The notes: a model not told the origin generated them from the sequence alone. Positions 1-6,747 are shown, counted from the first letter of the stretch. The stretch is DNA of 6,747 bases from Escherichia coli (GCF_050320075.1 NZ_CP190024.1), one strand, 5' to 3'. Program-made: numbers and translations.

Positions 1-927
1 ATGAGCGCCGCGCTTCAATACTTCGACGAAAATTTACCCCACCGTCCCTATCACACGGATGATCTCGCTTTTGGTCTTCGCATCTCCGGCAAAGGGCGTG
101 CGCTTCTTGCGCGGTACATCCAGCAGAACCAGCCTCATGCGCAGTTCTGGCTGGTTTTTGATGTTGACCGCGAGGGGGCAGCGATTGACTGGAGTGACCG
201 GAACGCTCCCGCGCCGAACATCACCGTAAAAAATCCTGTGAACGGTCATGCTCACCTGCTCTACGCGCTCAATATCGCCGTGAGAACCGCGCCGGACAGC
301 TCGGTTAAGGCGCTGAAATACGCCGCTGCGATTGAACGTTCGCTGTGTGAGAAACTTTGTGCTGATGTGAACTACAGCGGACTGATTTGTAAAAATCCGT
401 TCCACCTGGAATGGCAGGTGATGGAGTGGCGAGAGGAAGCCTATACCCTCGGTGAACTGGCTGATTATCTCGATTTGAGTGCCTCAGCGCGCCGTAGCAT
501 CGATAAACGTTACGGGATGGGGCGAAACTGCCACCTGTTCGAAATGACGCGCAAATGGGCTTACAGGGCGATTCGTCAGGGCTGGCCAGCATTCTCACAG
601 TGGCTTGATGCCGTGATTCAGCGTGTCGAAATGTACAACGCATCGCTTCCCGTTCCGCTTTCTCCGGCTGAATGTCGGGCTATTGGCAAGAGCATTGCGA
701 AATACACGCACAGGAACTTCACGCCGGAAACTTTCGCACAGTATGTGGCTGATACGCACACGCCAGAAATTCAGGCTGCACGTGGTCGCAAGGGCGGGAA
801 AATTGGAGGTGCTAAGTCTAAGCGTGGTGCTGTTGCCACATCTGCGCGAACGTTGAAACCGTGGGAGACTCTTGGAATTAGCCGCGCCTGGTATTACCAA
901 CTGAAAAAACGAGGTCTTGTAGAGTAG
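1..927 (+). CDS. rep: ColE2-family plasmid replication initiator Rep (plasmid-specific primase)
   Basis: 308-aa ORF from ATG at 1 to TAG at 925-927. The protein closely resembles, from memory, the Rep proteins of ColE2/ColE3-type plasmids (about 300 aa with a basic C-terminal DNA-binding tail, here ...GRKGGKIGGAKSKRGAVATSARTLKPWETLGISRAWYYQLKKRG). A ColE2-like origin motif follows the stop codon directly. Putative RBS GGAG at 6730-6733 if the molecule is circular. Confidence 0.88.
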   Translation: MSAALQYFDENLPHRPYHTDDLAFGLRISGKGRALLARYIQQNQPHAQFWLVFDVDREGAAIDWSDRNAPAPNITVKNPVNGHAHLLYALNIAVRTAPDSSVKALKYAAAIERSLCEKLCADVNYSGLICKNPFHLEWQVMEWREEAYTLGELADYLDLSASARRSIDKRYGMGRNCHLFEMTRKWAYRAIRQGWPAFSQWLDAVIQRVEMYNASLPVPLSPAECRAIGKSIAKYTHRNFTPETFAQYVADTHTPEIQAARGRKGGKIGGAKSKRGAVATSARTLKPWETLGISRAWYYQLKKRGLVE

Positions 928-975
928 ACCAAATAAAACCTATATCAGATAACAGCGCTTTTTTGAGCTGTTGGC
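928..975. promoter_or_regulatory. ColE2-type replication origin (Rep binding and primer synthesis site)
   Basis: Directly after the rep stop: AAATAAAACCTATATCAGATAACAGCGCTTTTTTGAGCTGTTGGCG. The core TATCAGATAACAGCGC (943-958) matches my recollection of the conserved ColE2-P9 minimal ori, which lies immediately 3' of rep in that family. Short inverted repeat ACAGC..GCTGT at 952-970. Exact boundaries are approximate. Confidence 0.6.
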
Positions 976-1035
976 GTTTGGTGGCTTTTTCGTTTCCTCC
1001 CTGCAATGGTGCGGCTTTCCGCGTGATTGAGGTTG

Positions 1036-1098
1036 TAGCGCTCGCCGCAGTCTCATGTCCGAGCGTAGCGAGCGAATGAGCGAGGAAGCGCAAAGGCG
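1036..1098. other. ColE1/pMB1-backbone-like segment, candidate single-strand initiation (primosome assembly) site
   Basis: GCGCTCGCCGCAGTCTCATGTCCGAGCGTAGCGAGCGAATGAGCGAGGAAGCGCAAAGGCG is roughly 80% identical by eye to the pMB1/pUC segment CCGCTCGCCGCAGCCGAACGACCGAGCGCAGCGAGTCAGTGAGCGAGGAAGCGGAAGAGCG, which sits just downstream of the ColE1-type origin. Functional call is inference from position (about 60-120 bp downstream of the ColE2 ori). Confidence 0.35.
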
Positions 1099-1132
1099 TC
1101 CGGTGGTGTATGTGGCTCTTACGCGCCGGGGC

Positions 1133-1408
1133 TTAGTGGTTCTGCGGTTTCGCCGGTGGTCTGGGTAGCTTCTCCAGCTCGTTAATCAGCGGTTGTAGTC
1201 GGTTCATATCGGCCTGTCTTGTGACTTCCTTTCGCAGAAACTGGAGCAGGAACGCACGCAGTTGCGCTTCTTCCGGCCTCCGTACCCTCGCCAGCATGGC
1301 AGCCCCCACAATGACTTTTTGCGCCGTGTCCAGGCTCCGGCTCTTCGCCTTCAGGCGCTGTAATCTGGCCTCAGCTTCGGCAATCTTCTGTTCGAGTGTT
1401 CTGCTCAT
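1133..1408 (-). CDS. mobC: MobC-family mobilisation accessory protein (relaxosome component)
   Basis: 91-aa ORF on the minus strand, divergent from the relaxase gene with the putative oriT in between (RSF1010-like arrangement). Charged coiled-coil N-terminus followed by KVIVGAAMLARV, resembling the MobC family. GGAG RBS about 8 nt upstream of the ATG (complement of 1406-1408); stop is the complement of 1133-1135. Confidence 0.72.
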   Translation of the reverse strand: MSRTLEQKIAEAEARLQRLKAKSRSLDTAQKVIVGAAMLARVRRPEEAQLRAFLLQFLRKEVTRQADMNRLQPLINELEKLPRPPAKPQNH

Positions 1409-1494
1409 TTCGTGACTCCGTGCGCGGTGAAAAATCGTATTTTAGCGCGTCACTGGTAGTTGCAAAACTGAACTGGCATAATGCACGGCACATC

Positions 1495-1550
1495 ACGAAG
1501 TGCGCACTTATACAATCTTCACTTCGTTTCGATTGTGTGCGCCCTGCGGG
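1495..1550. promoter_or_regulatory. Candidate oriT (nic region) and divergent mobC/mobA promoter region
   Basis: Intergenic region between divergent mobC and mobA. Inverted repeat CGAAGTG (1495-1501) / CACTTCG (1520-1526), including the perfect 12-bp palindrome AAGTGCGCACTT (1497-1508), followed by GTGTGCGCCCTGCGGGG (1535-1551). This resembles the RSF1010 nic region as I recall it (GGTAAGTGCG^CCCTCCCC), which would put the nick near 1541/1542. Confidence 0.5.
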
Positions 1551-1586
1551 GCTGAAAGAAAACGGCAAAAAGGCATTACGGAAGAA

Positions 1587-3806
1587 ATGGCGATTTATCA
1601 TCTCAGCATGAAAATCATTTCGCGAAAAAACGGCTACAGTGCCGTTGCTTCTGCTGCCTACCGTTCCGGCTCTGTCATACCCGATGACCGTACCGGATTA
1701 ATCCACGATTACACCCGTAAACGCGGCGTTGATGATGCGGTCATTCTCACCCCTGCGAATGCACCGTCCTGGTGTGGTGACCGTTCCGTTCTCTGGAATG
1801 CGGTCGAGAAAGCCGAACAGCGCCGGAACTCCCAGCTGGCAAGGGAGATTGAACTCGCCATTCCCCGTGAGATTTCCCGCGAGGCCGCACGGGAGGCCGT
1901 TCTCGCTTTTGTCCGGGAAAACTTTGTCAGTCGGGGCATGATTGCCGATGTGGCGTTCCATCATATGGACCGGACCAACCCCCATGCACACATCATGCTG
2001 ACCACGAGAGCTGTCGGGGAAACGGGATTCGCAGGAAAGGTCAGGGACTGGAACGACCGGGCACTCGCCGAGACGTGGCGCGCATCATGGGCTGACCATG
2101 CGAACAGAGCGCTTGCGAACGCCGGCTACCAGGAAGAGATAGACCATCGTTCATACGAGCGTCAGGGACTGGAGAAAGCGCCGGGCCTTCACCTCGGAAA
2201 GGCTGCCTGTGCGATGGAAAAACGGGGCATGGAAACAGAACGCGGTGAGCAGAACCGCCTGATTAACAGCCTTAACCTGGAAATACAGGTTTCCCGCACA
2301 AGGCTGGCAGTCATCCAGGTACAGGAGAACGTGCGGAAACGGGAACTCAGCGATGCCGCACGTCGTGCAGCGGAAGCCCTTAATCTGACCATTCCCGCCG
2401 CGAATGCCTCAGCGGATACCCTGCGGGAATTCATTGCCACACTGCCGCAGGAATGCGGGAACGCATGGGAGATGACACCGGAGTTCGTGGCGATGAACGG
2501 GAAGGCAAACGACATCAAACGTGAGGGGAATGCGCTGGTGAAAGAGCGGGATATTCTCGAAAAAGAGATGACCGGACTCAGAAAATCCCGTCCGGTAGCG
2601 TCCATCCTGTCAGAGCTTCCCCTGATGACATGGGCTGAACCGGAATACCGCAAAAGACAACTCCGCTTCTGGAAACTCGAGAAACAGATTGAATCTCTTC
2701 TCCGCACCTACAGGGCCGTGAAAGAACGGGACATTCCCGCCCGTCGTCAGGCCTTTGAAACGCAGTGGAATACGTGGATTTCGCCGGGAATGGCAGAGCT
2801 GAAAGAAAAACTGTCAGCACGGGAAGCGGAGCGGCGCAGGGAGGAAGCCGAAGCGGAAGCGCGCCGGAAGGAACAGGAATATGACGCACGGCTGAAACAC
2901 CATGATAACCATCGCCTGAGCCGTGAAACGGCATTAGCCGGGGTTATTACGGAGCTGGGGCGTGCCAGAGAGCCGGGAACGGGCAGGATAACCCGCTACA
3001 TGATGCTGAGTAACAGAGCCGGAGAATTCACGGTATGGGGTGATGAGCTGGCGCATTACCCCCAGAGTGTTCATGACCCGGTGAATGTTTACCTGTCGCC
3101 AGGCGGGGCTGTGATGGTCTCGGATATACGTGAGAGAATGCCAGAATCTCATGAGACGATGGCGCGGCCTGAGCGTGTGAGAATGTATTCCGGTGCGACG
3201 GTCCGGCATGTACTGGAACAGATGCGCCAGGGGTGGCCCTCTTACGGTTTTCCGGCGCTGCCGCATCACTGGCCGGATAATTTTTATTTCAGCGACGACC
3301 GCAGGCCCGCAGCCTCTCCGCTGCCGTCAGCGCACCGGGTGGACGTCACCGCTTATGCGGCACCGGAGCAACTCATGCCCGTTGTCTTTTCGACAGAGCG
3401 AAACAGCAGGACGCTGAATCTGCTGTTGTGCGAAGGGCCGGAGGAAATGCTTGTCGGTTTTGTGCGCCTGGAGGACGAGCTGCGTCCCGTTCTTGCGCTT
3501 CCGTCGCCGGATTACAGTCATCTGATGGTAAGCATCATCACAGAGAACGGGATACACCTGGCAGGTTACGGTGAGGCCATAAACCGTGATGCTGATACTC
3601 CGTACCCACCGGAACCGAAGCTGATGCAGTTCAGGCTTAAGGGCTGTCAGGACACGCTTTTTGCTGCCATCAACAAACCGGAAGAGATGCCGGATTATCT
3701 CTTCCGTCAACTCGGATTTAATCAGACCTGGCATGAGTGGAAGCGGGAGGAACAGCGCAGGCAACAACAACGCCGTCCCGGGCACTTCCGGGGCATGAGT
3801 ATGTGA
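1587..3806 (+). CDS. mobA: MobA/MobL-family (MobQ) conjugative relaxase with a long C-terminal extension
   Basis: The ORF track starts at a GTG at 1500, but the in-frame ATG at 1587 gives the N-terminus MAIYHLSMKIISRKNGYSAVASAAYRSGS, typical of MobA relaxases (RSF1010 MobA starts MAIYHL) and placing the catalytic Tyr near the N-terminus. Histidine triad HHMDRTNPHAHIML. Stop TGA at 3804-3806. Residues from about 250 to 740 include a charged coiled-coil stretch and a C-terminal region I cannot assign to a domain by eye. Confidence 0.9.
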   Translation: MAIYHLSMKIISRKNGYSAVASAAYRSGSVIPDDRTGLIHDYTRKRGVDDAVILTPANAPSWCGDRSVLWNAVEKAEQRRNSQLAREIELAIPREISREAAREAVLAFVRENFVSRGMIADVAFHHMDRTNPHAHIMLTTRAVGETGFAGKVRDWNDRALAETWRASWADHANRALANAGYQEEIDHRSYERQGLEKAPGLHLGKAACAMEKRGMETERGEQNRLINSLNLEIQVSRTRLAVIQVQENVRKRELSDAARRAAEALNLTIPAANASADTLREFIATLPQECGNAWEMTPEFVAMNGKANDIKREGNALVKERDILEKEMTGLRKSRPVASILSELPLMTWAEPEYRKRQLRFWKLEKQIESLLRTYRAVKERDIPARRQAFETQWNTWISPGMAELKEKLSAREAERRREEAEAEARRKEQEYDARLKHHDNHRLSRETALAGVITELGRAREPGTGRITRYMMLSNRAGEFTVWGDELAHYPQSVHDPVNVYLSPGGAVMVSDIRERMPESHETMARPERVRMYSGATVRHVLEQMRQGWPSYGFPALPHHWPDNFYFSDDRRPAASPLPSAHRVDVTAYAAPEQLMPVVFSTERNSRTLNLLLCEGPEEMLVGFVRLEDELRPVLALPSPDYSHLMVSIITENGIHLAGYGEAINRDADTPYPPEPKLMQFRLKGCQDTLFAAINKPEEMPDYLFRQLGFNQTWHEWKREEQRRQQQRRPGHFRGMSM

Positions 3807-3844
3807 TGTCCGGGGCTGCACTCCGGACCCCGCCAACACATCAC

Positions 3845-3868
3845 GGGCCACAAAATTTTTTGTGGCCC
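3845..3868. terminator. Palindromic hairpin downstream of mobA (possible terminator/insulator before the colicin promoter)
   Basis: GGGCCACAAAATTTTTTGTGGCCC is a near-perfect palindrome with 11-bp arms, 39 bp after the mobA stop and upstream of the colicin promoter. No clean U-tract follows on the plus strand, so terminator function is uncertain. Confidence 0.4.
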
Positions 3869-3925
3869 GCTCTGCGTTTTCTAAGTGTTATCCCTCCTGA
3901 CTTCTAAAAAATTTTCCACCTGAAC

Positions 3926-3954
3926 TTGACAGAAAAAACGATGACGGGTACTTT
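3926..3954 (+). promoter_or_regulatory. Colicin operon sigma70 promoter (-35 TTGACA, -10 approximately TACTTT)
   Basis: Consensus -35 TTGACA at 3926-3931. After a 17-bp spacer a candidate -10 TACTTT at 3949-3954. An A/T-rich tract lies upstream (3905-3920) and the LexA operators immediately downstream, as in E-group colicin promoters. Confidence 0.65.
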
Positions 3955-3959
3955 TTGAT

Positions 3960-3990
3960 CTGTACATAAAACCAGTGGTTTTATGTACAG
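3960..3990 (+). promoter_or_regulatory. Tandem overlapping LexA (SOS) operators
   Basis: CTGTACATAAAACCAG (3960-3975) fits the LexA box consensus CTGT-N8-ACAG, and an overlapping second box ends in ATGTACAG (3983-3990). The whole element CTGTACATAAAACCAGTGGTTTTATGTACAG is the classic dual SOS box of colicin promoters. Confidence 0.85.
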
Positions 3991-4037
3991 TATTAATCAT
4001 GTAATTAATTGTTTTAACGCTTAAAAGAGGGACTTTT

Positions 4038-5786
4038 ATGAGCGGTGGAGATGGACGCGGCCATAACACGGGCGCGCATAGCACAAGTGGTAACATTAAT
4101 GGTGGCCCGACCGGGATTGGTGTAAGTGGTGGTGCTTCTGATGGTTCAGGATGGAGTTCGGAAAATAACCCGTGGGGTGGTGGTTCCGGTAGCGGCATTC
4201 ACTGGGGAGGTGGCTCCGGTCGTGGTAATGGCGGGGGTAATGGCAATTCCGGTGGTGGCTCGGGAACAGGCGGTAATTTGTCAGCAGTAGCTGCGCCAGT
4301 GGCATTTGGTTTTCCGGCGCTTTCCACTCCAGGAGCTGGCGGTCTGGCTGTCAGTATTTCTGCAAGCGAATTATCGGCAGCTATTGCTGGTATTATTGCT
4401 AAATTAAAAAAAGTAAATCTTAAATTCACTCCTTTTGGGGTTGTCTTATCTTCATTAATTCCGTCGGAAATAGCGAAAGATGACCCCAATATGATGTCAA
4501 AGATTGTGACGTCATTACCCGCAGATGATATTACTGAATCACCTGTCAGTTCATTACCTCTCGATAAGGCAACAGTAAACGTAAATGTTCGTGTTGTTGA
4601 TGATGTAAAAGACGAACGACAGAATATTTCGGTTGTTTCAGGTGTTCCGATGAGTGTTCCGGTGGTTGATGCAAAACCTACCGAACGTCCAGGTGTTTTT
4701 ACGGCATCAATTCCAGGTGCACCTGTTCTGAATATTTCAGTTAATAACAGTACGCCAGCAGTACAGACATTAAGCCCAGGTGTTACAAATAATACTGATA
4801 AGGATGTTCGCCCGGCAGGATTTACTCAGGGTGGTAATACCAGGGATGCAGTTATTCGATTCCCGAAGGACAGCGGTCATAATGCCGTATATGTTTCAGT
4901 GAGTGATGTTCTTAGTCCTGACCAGGTAAAACAACGTCAGGATGAAGAAAATCGCCGTCAGCAGGAATGGGATGCTACGCATCCGGTTGAAGCGGCTGAG
5001 CGAAATTATGAACGCGCGCGTGCAGAGCTGAATCAGGCAAATGAAGATGTTGCCAGAAATCAGGAGCGACAGGCTAAAGCTGTTCAGGTTTATAATTCGC
5101 GTAAAAGCGAACTTGATGCAGCGAATAAAACTCTTGCTGATGCAATAGCTGAAATAAAACAATTTAATCGATTTGCCCATGACCCAATGGCTGGCGGTCA
5201 CAGAATGTGGCAAATGGCCGGGCTTAAAGCTCAGCGGGCGCAGACGGATGTAAATAATAAGCAGGCTGCATTTGATGCTGCTGCAAAAGAGAAGTCAGAT
5301 GCTGATGCTGCATTAAGTGCCGCGCAGGAGCGCCGCAAACAGAAGGAAAATAAAGAAAAGGACGCTAAGGATAAATTAGATAAGGAGAGTAAACGGAATA
5401 AGCCAGGGAAGGCGACAGGTAAAGGTAAACCAGTTGGTGATAAATGGCTGGATGATGCAGGTAAAGATTCAGGAGCGCCAATTCCAGATCGCATTGCTGA
5501 TAAGTTGCGTGATAAAGAATTTAAAAACTTCGACGATTTTCGGAGAAAATTCTGGGAAGAAGTGTCGAAAGATCCTGAGTTAAGTAAGCAATTTAATCCA
5601 GGTAATAAAAAACGCTTGAGCCAAGGATTAGCTCCACGGGCTAGGAATAAAGATACTGTCGGTGGGCGTCGCTCATTTGAGCTTCATCACGACAAGCCAA
5701 TCAGTCAGGATGGTGGTGTTTATGATATGGACAACCTCCGTATCACTACGCCGAAACGCCATATTGATATTCACAGAGGTCAGTAA
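4038..5786 (+). CDS. col: E-group DNase colicin (BtuB/Tol-dependent, HNH nuclease C-terminus), most consistent with colicin E8-type
   Basis: 582-aa ORF with RBS GAGGG at 4026-4030. Glycine-rich N-terminal translocation domain containing the TolB box DGSGW (residues 35-39). Central coiled-coil region of the kind that forms the receptor-binding domain. C-terminal HNH/beta-beta-alpha-Me motif [34 protein letters not shown], diagnostic of the DNase colicins E2/E7/E8/E9. Subtype inferred from the adjacent immunity gene. Confidence 0.93.
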
Positions 5787-5788
5787 AA

Positions 5789-6046
5789 ATGGAACTGAAA
5801 AACAGCATTAGTGATTACACTGAAACTGAATTCAAAAAAATTATTGAAGACATCATCAATTGTGAAGGTGATGAAAAAAAACAGGATGATAACCTCGAGC
5901 ATTTTATAAGTGTTACTGAGCATCCTAGTGGTTCTGATCTGATTTATTACCCAGAAGGTAATAATGATGGTAGCCCTGAAGCTGTTATTAAAGAGATTAA
6001 AGAATGGCGAGCTGCTAACGGTAAGTCAGGATTTAAACAGGGCTGA
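5789..6046 (+). CDS. imm: DNase-colicin immunity protein (Im family), Im8-like
   Basis: 85-aa ORF starting 2 nt after the colicin stop, with RBS AGAGG inside the colicin 3' end. Conserved Im-family blocks [12 protein letters not shown]...[13 protein letters not shown]...[17 protein letters not shown]. The variable specificity region ([32 protein letters not shown]) matches my recollection of Im8 rather than Im2, Im7 or Im9. Confidence 0.93.
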
Positions 6047-6051
6047 AATAT

Positions 6052-6090
6052 GAATGCCAGTTGTTTAAGGATGAATGACTGGCATTCTTT
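6052..6090 (+). terminator. Hairpin between imm and lysis gene (partial read-through terminator)
   Basis: Perfect 10-bp inverted repeat GAATGCCAGT (6052-6061) / ACTGGCATTC (6078-6087) with a 16-nt loop, followed by TTT. It sits between imm and the lysis gene, where E-colicin operons have an attenuating terminator. Confidence 0.5.
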
Positions 6091-6107
6091 CACAACAAGG
6101 AGTCGTT

Positions 6108-6251
6108 ATGAAAAAAATAACAGGGATTATTTTATTGCTTCTTGCAGTCATTATTCTGGCTGCATGTCAGGCAAACTATATCCGGGATGTTCAGGGCGGG
6201 ACCGTATCTCCGTCATCAACAGCTGAAGTGACCGGATTAGCAACGCAGTAA
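6108..6251 (+). CDS. Colicin release / lysis lipoprotein (bacteriocin release protein)
   Basis: 47-aa ORF absent from the ORF track because of its length. [47 protein letters not shown] has a signal peptide and lipobox (LAAC, lipidated Cys at position 20), typical of colicin lysis proteins. Strong RBS AAGGAG at 6097-6102; last gene of the col-imm-lys operon. Confidence 0.9.
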
Positions 6252-6278
6252 CCCGAAATCCTCTTTGACAAAAACAAA

Positions 6279-6311
6279 GCGTGTCAGGCTGATTCTGATG
6301 CGCTTTTTTTT
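6279..6311 (+). terminator. Rho-independent terminator of the colicin operon
   Basis: Stem GCGTGTCAG (6279-6287) / CTGATGCGC (6295-6303) with a 7-nt loop and two G-U pairs, followed by T8 (6304-6311), just after the lysis gene stop. Confidence 0.75.
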
Positions 6312-6439
6312 GAAATGTCACAAAAGTTCCATGTGGGAGATGGGATCTAAAATCCCTGTGCAGAACCTTCCATCCGGTGGGAGAAAACTTGTCATTTTGA
6401 CCTGTTCGCCATTCGGAACGGTCGAAACCGATCGCGTAT

Positions 6440-6590
6440 CGCTTTCGTGCATAGTTATGCAGCGCCCTAAAAACGATTCTGACGCATTTTTCTGGTTCAG
6501 CCTGGTGTTTCCTTGTCTTTTTGCGTTTTTTGCGTCAGAACGCGTCTGAGAGCGTTTTAAGGGGTACGTACAACAGGAATTATGGTAAAT
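6440..6590. other. cer-like Xer (XerC/XerD) multimer-resolution site with upstream accessory sequences
   Basis: Core at 6563-6590: GGTACGTACAA-CAGGAA-TTATGGTAAAT. The XerD arm is identical, and the XerC arm has one mismatch, to ColE1 cer (GGTGCGTACAA-TTAAGGGA-TTATGGTAAAT) as I recall it. About 110 bp upstream is a palindrome with ARG-box geometry, TGCATAGTTATGCA (6449-6462), plus 9-bp inverted repeats TCTGACGCA (6478-6486) / TGCGTCAGA (6531-6539). Confidence 0.65.
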
Positions 6591-6644
6591 GGATCGGGTT
6601 TGCGGGAAGGATCGACAGGATTTGCCGTTGGGTGTAGTGTAAGC

Positions 6645-6745
6645 GACTGAAAAACAAACGCCCCTGAAATCATGTCCAGATCCGGCAAGATTCAACATGA
6701 AATACAGAGGGCGTGTAGGTCGCATAACCCGGAGAGAATCGTAAC
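6645..6745 (-). ncRNA. Candidate antisense copy-control RNA (RNAI-like) complementary to the rep mRNA leader
   Basis: In ColE2-type plasmids an approximately 115-nt antisense RNA complementary to the rep 5' UTR controls Rep translation. On the minus strand, if the molecule is circular, a promoter-like pair spans the junction: TTGAAG (complement of 13-18), 16-bp spacer, TACGAT (complement of 6738-6743). Downstream, imperfect stem arms (complement of 6705-6713 and 6659-6666) are followed by a T-rich tract, GTTTGTTTTTC. Ends are approximate. Confidence 0.35.
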
Positions 6746-6747
6746 AC

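Follow-up and report, generated by a model that had tools for sequence, protein, structure and literature searches.

Modules of the 6,747-bp window

The stretch of Escherichia coli DNA analyzed here (6,747 bp, referred to throughout as the window) carries rep and its origin, a mobilization module, a colicin-imm-lys operon, a cer-like site, and the leader of rep. An earlier note on this DNA had described these modules as present once each and in the canonical order, a description borne out by the open reading frames, Pfam searches, and alignments. Leaving the control elements of rep for a later section, the features are as follows.

1-927, + strand: rep, ColE2-family initiator-primase, 308 aa (open reading frame; Pfam; RefSeq WP_024129980.1)
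921-959, + strand: replication origin, overlapping the rep stop codon (homology to the ColE2-P9 minimal origin)
1035-1124, no strand: primosome-assembly-site-like (ssi) block, of putative function (similarity to ColE1-type plasmids)
1133-3806: predicted MOBQ4 mobC/oriT/mobA module
1133-1408, - strand: mobC, putative MOBQ4-type accessory protein of the relaxase, 91 aa (open reading frame; layout)
1409-1586, no strand: putative oriT, the 178-bp mobC-mobA intergenic region (length equal to that of the oriT fragment of PMC6856555)
1587-3806, + strand: mobA, predicted MOBQ4 (Q42) relaxase, 739 aa (Pfam MobA_MobL, E 2e-70)
3926-6251: predicted SOS-controlled colicin-imm-lys operon
3926-3990, + strand: colicin promoter as read from the sequence, with -35 TTGACA at 3926-3931 and -10 TACTTT at 3949-3954
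4038-5786, + strand: colicin, 582 aa (Pfam Cloacin, Pyocin_S, E2R135, and Col-Pyo_DNase [PF21431, E 4e-53])
5789-6046, + strand: imm, colicin E8 immunity protein (Im8), by its match to PDB 1GXG
6108-6251, + strand: lys, colicin release lipoprotein, 47 aa (Pfam Lysis_col, E 1e-20; RefSeq WP_001314446.1)
6276-6316, + strand: intrinsic terminator of the colicin operon, a 13-pair stem followed by a T-run
6336-6590, no strand: cer-like multimer-resolution site, an accessory region plus core (6563-6590), aligned to ColE1 cer

Rep contains the Pfam domains Replicase (PF03090, E 8e-44) and PriCT_1 (PF08708), and its C-terminal DNA-binding domain matches that of ColE2-P9 Rep (PDB 3VW4, E 3e-55), to which it is homologous but relative to which it carries insertions of 9 and 4 aa. 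As in ColE2-P9, a homologous origin lies directly after rep. When aligned with the minimal origin of that plasmid (sequence from the supplement of PMC3163176), the window origin matches at 31 of 38 bases, with two single-base insertions and one base missing; it is identical to the origin of ColE9-J. A very small origin (about 32 bp) directly downstream of rep has been described for ColE2-family replicons (PMC6856555), and ColE2 replication uses a primer made by Rep and depends on DNA polymerase I (PMC4538821). By homology to this characterized family of class C theta replicons, Rep would act as a primase of the archaeo-eukaryotic type (AEP) whose C-terminal domain is expected to bind DNA at the ~35-bp origin overlapping the rep stop codon; the enzyme would lay down the short primer used by DNA polymerase I. 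Because the insertions in Rep and origin sit in the regions where Shinohara and Itoh, in 1996, reportedly located the determinants of Rep-origin specificity, that specificity probably differs from the one of ColE2-P9. Over 90 bp, the ssi-like block shares 78% identity with ColE1 positions 3768-3679, just past the 3' end of rop, and it is matched by more than 5,000 plasmid records; lagging-strand priming would occur at this putative ColE1-like primosome assembly site ~100 bp beyond the origin.

To judge from homology and layout, the mobilization module is specifically that of MOBQ4, mobA/mobC with a 178-bp oriT. A divergent mobC encoding fewer than 100 aa and a tested 178-bp oriT fragment make up the MOBQ4 layout, and an architecture exactly like that of the window has been described for MOBQ42/ColE9-J-like plasmids (PMC6856555). 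MobA has Y25, E87, E89, H125, H133, and H135, six of six, at the positions published in PMC6856555. It is 99.5% identical to the MobA of ColE9-J, the MOBQ42 prototype; MobC, for which a Pfam search gave no match, is 98.9% identical to its ColE9-J homologue. Within oriT, an inverted repeat (1495-1502/1520-1527) is followed by GTGCGCCCT at 1537-1545, which we take, from its resemblance to RSF1010, to be the candidate nic region. MobA, aided by MobC, would nick oriT and so render the plasmid mobilizable by helper conjugative plasmids; for a module of this group, MPF-I helpers and a relaxase acting in cis would be expected.

The colicin promoter region, which is 76% identical to that of ColE1 cea, includes two overlapping LexA boxes (3960-3975 and 3975-3990). 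On the RefSeq gene names, the plasmid would be a ColE9 or ColE2 plasmid rather than a ColE8 plasmid: PGAP/RefSeq calls the toxin gene "colicin-E9," the best full-length PDB matches are to colicin E9, and the translocation and receptor domains are identical to those of ColE9-J at 447 of 448 positions (T domain, 313/314; R domain, 134/134). The full-length similarity to E9, however, is driven by these shared uptake domains. The DNase domain is identical to that of pColE8 over 134/134 residues, compared with 106/134 for ColE9-J and 114/134 for an E2-type colicin. Similarly, the immunity protein is identical over 85/85 residues to PDB 1GXG, "colicin E8 immunity protein," and has the same protein accession in pColE8 (NC_012882.1), while its matches to the ColE9-J and E2-type immunity proteins amount to 48/88 and 52/86. 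We regard an E9 or E2 assignment as extremely unlikely; judged by the sequences of toxin and immunity protein, the module is that of colicin E8, a group A nuclease colicin, and the plasmid belongs with ColE8 instead of E2 or E9. The toxin name should accordingly read colicin E8. A LexA-repressed SOS operon would then produce colicin E8 (E9-type uptake domains joined to an E8 H-N-H DNase), Im8, and a lysis lipoprotein.

The core of the cer-like site reads GGTACGTACAA-CAGGAA-TTATGGTAAAT, with a XerC arm at 6563-6573, a 6-bp spacer at 6574-6579, and a XerD arm at 6580-6590. ColE1, a plasmid of an unrelated replicon type that is primed through RNAII/RNAI and has no Rep, shares 10 of the 11 bases of the XerC arm and all 11 of the XerD arm, but the central region of its cer is 8 bp long, as opposed to 6 bp in the window. 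An ARG-box-like palindrome, TGCATAGTTATGCA (6448-6461), aligns with the segment of ColE1 cer nearest the ARG-box consensus but departs from that consensus at more than four positions. Elsewhere in the accessory sequences, conservation is weak, with identity in 135 of 288 aligned columns. A cer-like site has been described for MOBQ42 plasmids (PMC6856555); by homology, XerC/XerD would resolve multimers at the one in the window.

One circular unit and its deposited copies

A megablast search with the whole window returned four circular E. coli plasmid records of exactly 6,747 bp each and ~100% identity: pACN001-D (NC_023325.1), NZ_CP063463.1, NZ_CP129286.1, and NZ_CP119751.1. Each match came in two pieces, because the deposited records were linearized at another point; a second search recovered three of the four. 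The records agree with the window in gene set, length, and circular sequence and differ in where they were opened. Two of them were compared base by base, and both NC_023325.1, rotated such that its base 5249 becomes window base 1, and the reverse complement of NZ_CP063463.1 (base 3071 as window base 1) reproduced the window with a single mismatch (6,746/6,747 identical). The mismatch, a synonymous one, is at base 162, which is T in the window and C in the two compared records as well as in every raw contig checked.

Raw contigs from four independent short-read assemblies encode exactly this Rep. They measure 6,873, 6,846, 6,824, and 6,802 bp and have exact terminal k-mer overlaps of 127, 99, 77, and 55 bp, respectively, closing into circles of 6,746, 6,747, 6,747, and 6,747 bp. 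A search of the window ends for terminal duplication or an assembly artifact found neither. The rotation identity and these self-closing contigs uphold the claim of the earlier note that a whole colicin plasmid of the ColE2 type, linearized at the rep ATG, makes up the window.

It could be argued that the window is instead one repeat unit taken from a larger plasmid, from a cointegrate, or from a multimer, since two metagenome scaffolds hold about two head-to-tail units each, parts of the replicon are present in IncF plasmids and in a further contig, and one 11-kb record is matched at two places. Head-to-tail scaffolds are, however, a usual signature of a circular template, and the copies in large plasmids are incomplete: either rep stops at window position 761, or a deletion has removed mob along with the greater part of the colicin gene. 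The window, in contrast, has all modules intact, exactly once, and is exactly as long as the unit in four closed circular records; the short-read contigs, moreover, close on themselves. We consider an origin from something larger very unlikely. Almost certainly, the 6,747-bp window represents a circular, mobilizable E. coli ColE2-family colicin plasmid, essentially pACN001-D, as a single complete unit opened at the rep ATG, with RNAI and the other replication-control parts being predictions. The plasmid is an ordinary, already described one, with nothing new in this respect, and the importance of the result is mainly one of housekeeping. Starting a record at the rep ATG is common practice among depositors and not a biological feature, since the matches to many relatives are unbroken and begin at base 1 of their records.

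A point on the other side is that truncated copies of the replicon and one deletion derivative lie inside larger contigs and large plasmids, so this DNA is not always autonomous.

Candidate control elements around the rep start codon

The elements with a possible role in rep expression lie at the two ends of the window.

6612-6640, + strand: candidate rep promoter, with -35 TCGACA at 6612-6617, a 17-bp spacer, and -10 TAGTGT at 6635-6640
6647-6747, + strand: predicted rep mRNA 5' leader, about 100 nt, with a hairpin at 6658-6714 and GGAG at 6731-6734, running into the ATG at position 1
13-18, - strand: candidate -35 (TTGAAG) of the RNAI promoter, in rep codons 5-6, proposed from conservation
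6738-6746, - strand: candidate extended -10 (TGT TACGAT) of the RNAI promoter, the -10 hexamer being the complement of 6743-6738
6650-6731, - strand: predicted antisense RNAI, about 82 nt, complementary to the leader and ending in a hairpin plus UUUGUUUUU, its ends placed from the promoter and terminator positions

Both hexamers of the candidate rep promoter are invariant in 15 relatives. The leader hairpin has a folding energy of -20.7 kcal/mol (z = -4.3), and none of 200 shuffled sequences was equally stable. Its shape recurs in diverged leader types although the sequence of the upper stem differs, an observation made by folding each type separately and, given few independent sequence types, weaker than covariation counts would be. 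Automatic covariation analysis of a MAFFT alignment of the leaders yielded no more than a single compensatory pair, the upper stem having been shifted out of register by indels. The earlier assignment of the last ~130 bp to the rep leader holds once the promoter is counted in (from the -35 at 6612), the leader proper being only about 100 nt.

On the opposite strand, the -35 candidate of the RNAI promoter is kept in 15/15 aligned relatives, the most diverged included, as well as in ColE2-P9, and the same is true of TA[C/G]GAT and the TG preceding it. These two elements are separated by 16 bp across the 6747/1 junction, and in ColE2-P9 the conserved antisense-promoter candidate likewise spans the rep ATG. 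In a simple sigma-70 scan of the plasmid, the rep and RNAI promoter candidates both scored below threshold; both are proposed on conservation and position. The antisense strand of the leader folds as a hairpin followed by a U-run, resembling an intrinsic terminator. The RNAI of ColE2-P9 is about 115 nt long. If transcribed from a promoter spanning the rep ATG, the RNAI predicted here would pair with the leader hairpin, block translation of Rep, and thereby set the copy number; an RNAI has been described for ColE2 plasmids (PMC6856555, PMC5304414).

Within the limits of sequence evidence, the idea that rep-control elements straddle the 6747/1 boundary is supported, and it applies to the antisense-promoter candidate and to the link between ribosome-binding site (RBS) and ATG; the candidate rep promoter and the leader hairpin lie wholly inside the window. 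A sub-threshold Rfam match, too, appeared in a record with the junction interior and was gone in the linear window. The window is best handled as a circle, and annotation of rep control, which concerns the RBS-to-ATG link as well as the antisense promoter, needs the 6747/1 junction in the interior.

The match in question, to PK-repBA (RF01089; 23.8 bits, E 0.06), spans the junction and would fit a leader acting through a repBA-type pseudoknot of the kind found in IncB/IncI-alpha plasmids, with pairing between the loop and the RBS region, rather than through simple antisense occlusion. Its score is nevertheless far under the gathering threshold of 45, and in 7/7 leader types, between 138 and 330 of 500 shuffled loops gave loop-to-RBS duplex energies at least equal to that of the native loop. 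With an Rfam score below gathering and a loop-RBS complementarity no better than that of shuffled loops, we rejected the pseudoknot, which appears extremely unlikely. An Rfam search of the whole plasmid at E ≤ 1 returned no credible RNA family.

Relatives and mosaic structure

Segments resembling pColE8 and ColE9-J, combined with a third type of leader, make the plasmid a mosaic. pColE8 (NC_012882.1, 6,751 bp) is 97.4% identical overall, with identical Im8, lysis protein, and DNase domain, a MobA identity of 99.5%, and 238/240 identities over Rep residues 1-240. It has, however, another variant of the Rep C terminus and origin (window positions 751-1050 are only 78-83% identical, and its Rep has 304 aa rather than 308), its colicin is 9 aa shorter in the receptor domain, and an extra ~32 nt in its leader form a second hairpin. 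ColE9-J (NC_011977.1, 7,577 bp), the MOBQ42 prototype, has the identical origin and matches Rep residues 241-308 at 65/68 positions, but it carries the E9 DNase and immunity in place of the E8 pair of the window, an 828-bp second, partial colicin E5 operon that is absent from the window, and a leader hairpin of another type (79% identity over window positions 6601-6747). Compared with pColE8, ColE9-J, and three E2/E8-type relatives, this same stretch is only ~80% identical, the changes being in the loop and upper stem. The apparent units of exchange are the Rep C terminus together with the origin, the DNase together with the immunity gene, and the leader separately.

These comparisons allow the reading that the plasmid is a natural three-way chimera, with a leader/RNAI incompatibility specificity of its own, unlike that of classical ColE8 or ColE9, and with a Rep C terminus/origin pair from the ColE9-J lineage; we hold this to be a reasonable possibility, at somewhat less than an even chance. 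If it is true, the exchange of modules at conserved flanks would make it possible for a cell to harbor several colicin plasmids of the ColE2 family at once. Hiraga et al., in work of 1994 that PMC5304414 and PMC6856555 cite, are said to have proposed this principle already for ColE2-related replicons, so even then the chimera would be a further case of an existing idea. One relative, of 4.25 kb, cleanly lacks the colicin operon. As it stands, the mosaic illustrates neatly how small enterobacterial plasmids trade modules and introduces no new principle.

Circularity of the 6,747-bp unit

The earlier note had taken the window to be an entire ColE2-type colicin plasmid opened at the rep ATG, and circular records and self-overlapping contigs bore this out. 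A whole-window megablast against PLSDB returned four circular records of exactly 6,747 bp and ~100% identity (NC_023325.1 [pACN001-D], NZ_CP063463.1, NZ_CP129286.1, and NZ_CP119751.1), three of which turned up again among RefSeq E. coli genomes; each aligned to the window in two pieces because it had been linearized at another point. The plasmid is already known and has been deposited several times. NC_023325.1, when rotated (base 5249 as window base 1), and NZ_CP063463.1, when reverse-complemented and rotated (base 3071 as window base 1), each reproduced the window with a single mismatch, at position 162 (T versus C; synonymous, Rep codon 54, GAT versus GAC). The T was private to the window, with C found in both circular records and in all 10 raw contigs checked.

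Comparison of the two window ends revealed no duplicated sequence. As an independent test of circularity, we used contigs of raw public assemblies encoding exactly the window's Rep, a protein indexed in 524 blocks (longest contig, 5 to 10 kb in 355 of them). Contigs of 6,873, 6,846, 6,824, and 6,802 bp carried exact terminal overlaps of 127, 99, 77, and 55 bp, respectively, and thus correspond to a closed unit of 6,746 to 6,747 bp; two of the four differ from the window at base 162 only. Since many relatives align to the window in one piece from their own base 1 (PLSDB megablast), the rep-ATG start of small plasmids is conventional in depositing or reorienting records and has no biological significance. 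In all, the observation was confirmed and its interpretation supported with refinements: colicin E8, a MOBQ4 mobilization module, and a mosaic backbone.

Features of the window
1-927, rep, ATG at base 1, 308-aa ORF (Pfam Replicase and PriCT_1)
921-959, replication origin, overlapping the rep stop codon
1035-1124, PAS-like block, 78% identical to the ColE1 segment just past the rop 3' end
1133-1408, minus strand, mobC (91 aa)
1409-1586, mobC-mobA gap (oriT), 178 bp
1587-3806, mobA, MOBQ4 relaxase
3926-3931, colicin promoter -35 (TTGACA), with two overlapping LexA boxes at 3960-3990
4038-5786, colicin gene (Pfam Cloacin, Pyocin_S, and E2R135 uptake domains; Col-Pyo DNase domain)
5789-6046, imm, product identical to Im8 (PDB 1GXG; 85/85)
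6108-6251, lys
6276-6306, strong terminator 3' of lys
6563-6590, cer-like core, GGTACGTACAA-CAGGAA-TTATGGTAAAT

Colicin E8 operon and MOBQ4 module

The identity to Im8, together with a DNase domain matching that of pColE8 at 134/134 residues but that of E9 at only 106/134, identifies the toxin operon as colicin E8, not E2 or E9. RefSeq/PGAP names window 4038-5786 "colicin-E9" because of the common uptake domains (translocation and receptor domains 447/448 identical to those of ColE9-J), and such naming can mislead. Toxins of other E8-immunity plasmids are named "colicin-E2" there, despite their E8 DNase and immunity. The deposited pColE8 colicin (NC_012882.1) lacks nine residues of the receptor-binding coiled coil (FDAAAKEKS; window 5251-5400) that the window and ColE9-J possess.

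According to PMC6856555, MOBQ42 plasmids (prototype, ColE9-J) encode a ColE2-like Rep with PF03090 and PF08708 domains and are controlled by RNAI; their 32-bp origin lies downstream of rep and their oriT between mobA and mobC, and they also have a group A nuclease colicin operon plus a cer-like site. Judged by its sequence, the window appears to agree point for point. Its mobC, gap, and mobA also have exactly the MOBQ4 layout, a divergent mobC of <100 aa plus a 178-bp oriT (PMC6856555). All of Y25, E87, E89, H125, H133, and H135 of MobA, which is 99.5% identical to ColE9-J MobA, are at published positions. An 8-bp inverted repeat in the gap is followed 9 nt further on by GTGCGCCCT, which we take to resemble the RSF1010 nick region and which provides a lead as a candidate nick region. 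Between the end of mobA and the colicin promoter, an 11-bp inverted repeat without mismatches encloses a loop of 2 nt (3845-3868; GGGCCACAAAA TT TTTTGTGGCCC). It might serve as an insulator or as a terminator in both directions; a canonical T-run is absent, and the scanner made no call.

Mosaic backbone, origin, and cer-like site

pColE8 is 97.4% identical to the window. Comparison along the full length with five relatives revealed a mosaic.

Closest relatives along the window
151-750, Rep N-terminal part: pColE8, 0.97-1.00
751-1050, Rep C terminus and origin: ColE9-J, identical; pColE8 only 0.78-0.83
1500-5250, mobA and most of the colicin gene: pColE8 and ColE9-J alike
5401-6300, DNase, imm, and lys: pColE8, identical; ColE9-J only 0.59-0.96
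6601-6747, rep leader: ~0.8 to each of the five

Window 1351-1500 (the mobC 5' end and mobC-proximal half of the oriT gap) is a further small mosaic patch, being 98 to 99% identical to the E2/E8-type relatives pUC4224_2, pCol-EH41, and pSCU-111-3 but only 91 to 92% to ColE9-J and pColE8, elsewhere the closest backbones.

At its C terminus, Rep has a domain that matches the DNA-binding domain of ColE2-P9 Rep (PDB 3VW4; E = 3e-55), with insertions of 9 aa and 4 aa relative to it. In an alignment with the minimal origin of ColE2-P9, as given in the PMC3163176 supplement, the window origin matches 31 of 38 bases, with two single-base insertions and one base missing. The ColE9-J origin is identical to it, and the origin variant tracks Rep length, 308-aa Reps occurring with two-insertion origins and 304-aa Reps with one-insertion origins. 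This pairing fits the Rep-origin specificity pairs reportedly described for ColE2 and ColE3 by Shinohara and Itoh in 1996. The PAS-like block matches >5,000 plasmid records and is read here as a putative primosome assembly (ssi) site. Compared with ColE1 cer, the cer-like core has identities of 10/11 and 11/11 in its arms and a spacer of 6 bp instead of 8; the palindrome TGCATAGTTATGCA (6448-6461), which lines up with the part of ColE1 cer closest to the ARG-box consensus, itself has more than four mismatches to that consensus.

The rep control region across the junction

The rep control region was aligned across 15 relatives, whose records either contain the junction internally or were rotated to restore it. 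TCGACA (6612-6617) and TAGTGT (6635-6640), 17 bp apart, were invariant in all 15, as was the block from TAGTGT up to the leader hairpin (6658-6714). The hairpin is significantly stable, at -20.7 kcal/mol and z = -4.3, a stability reached by 0 of 200 shuffles. The upper stem and loop of this hairpin vary among leader types, the fold shape being constant in each (z ~ -4.7 for two other single-hairpin types). On the antisense strand, UUUGUUUUU comes after the hairpin in the manner of an intrinsic terminator, and a candidate promoter consists of TTGAAG (complement 18..13), a 16-bp spacer, and the extended -10 TGT-TACGAT (complement 6746..6738), retained in 15/15 relatives and in ColE2-P9. Taken together, they point to a predicted antisense RNA of ~82 nt, from 6731 to ~6650, over most of the ~100-nt rep leader. 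In the leader type of pColE8, a second hairpin is formed by ~32 additional nt, which would lengthen the predicted RNA to ~114 nt; ColE2-P9 RNAI has a similar length, roughly 115 nt.

The candidate antisense promoter is cut by 6747/1 (-35 in rep codons 5-6, -10 at 6738-6743), as is the link from the ribosome-binding GGAG to the ATG; the anticipated straddling of the window boundary by rep-control elements thus holds for these two, and only these. One signal across the boundary was demonstrably missed in linear analysis: an Rfam scan of a record with an interior junction gave a subthreshold PK-repBA match across it (23.8 bits; E = 0.06) that was gone from the scan of the linear window. Since this score is far under the gathering score of 45, and since pairing of the loop with the RBS, the defining contact of the repBA pseudoknot, was no better than with shuffled loops in 7/7 leader types, PK-repBA membership was rejected for this match.

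The 5.2-kb small plasmid OZ040952 carries the window's hairpin type unchanged. This distinct leader type may give the plasmid an RNAI incompatibility specificity of its own, which would be a further case of a principle reportedly proposed in 1994.

A 12,756-bp contig of GCA_974490525.1 holds ~3 head-to-tail, colicin-less units of ~4.25 kb with the window's Rep; each joins window 1-3882 to 6381-6747. The colicin operon thus acts like a cassette whose ends lie near 3882/3883 and 6380/6381. In a contig of GCA_027887625.1 (8339-10778), a deletion derivative fuses window 6658-6747 plus 1-1221 to 5615-6747, having lost mob and most of the colicin gene; lys and a complete Im8 are retained, along with a DNase stub of 56 aa. 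It adjoins DUF6404 and microcin-immunity genes, an arrangement also seen in the IncF plasmids, and could be an orphan E8 immunity on a larger replicon. In a 10,111-bp contig of GCA_032742755.1, two ColE2-type rep/mob units are linked to a replicon of the Rep_3 type, which is known from MOBQ41 plasmids; the contig represents a cointegrate or else a misassembly of coresident MOBQ4 plasmids. Large IncFIA/FIB conjugative plasmids (NZ_CP032202.1, 2838-3806; NZ_CP124461.1, 5838-7010) carry a decayed copy comprising the cer-like region, leader, and rep truncated at window 761, next to ChaN/TonB/TonB-dependent-receptor genes; the former also lacks window 6688-117, and the latter also adjoins senB. Window 6499-6687 (the first 189 nt of the query) recurs at ~94% in many 60- to 160-kb plasmids.
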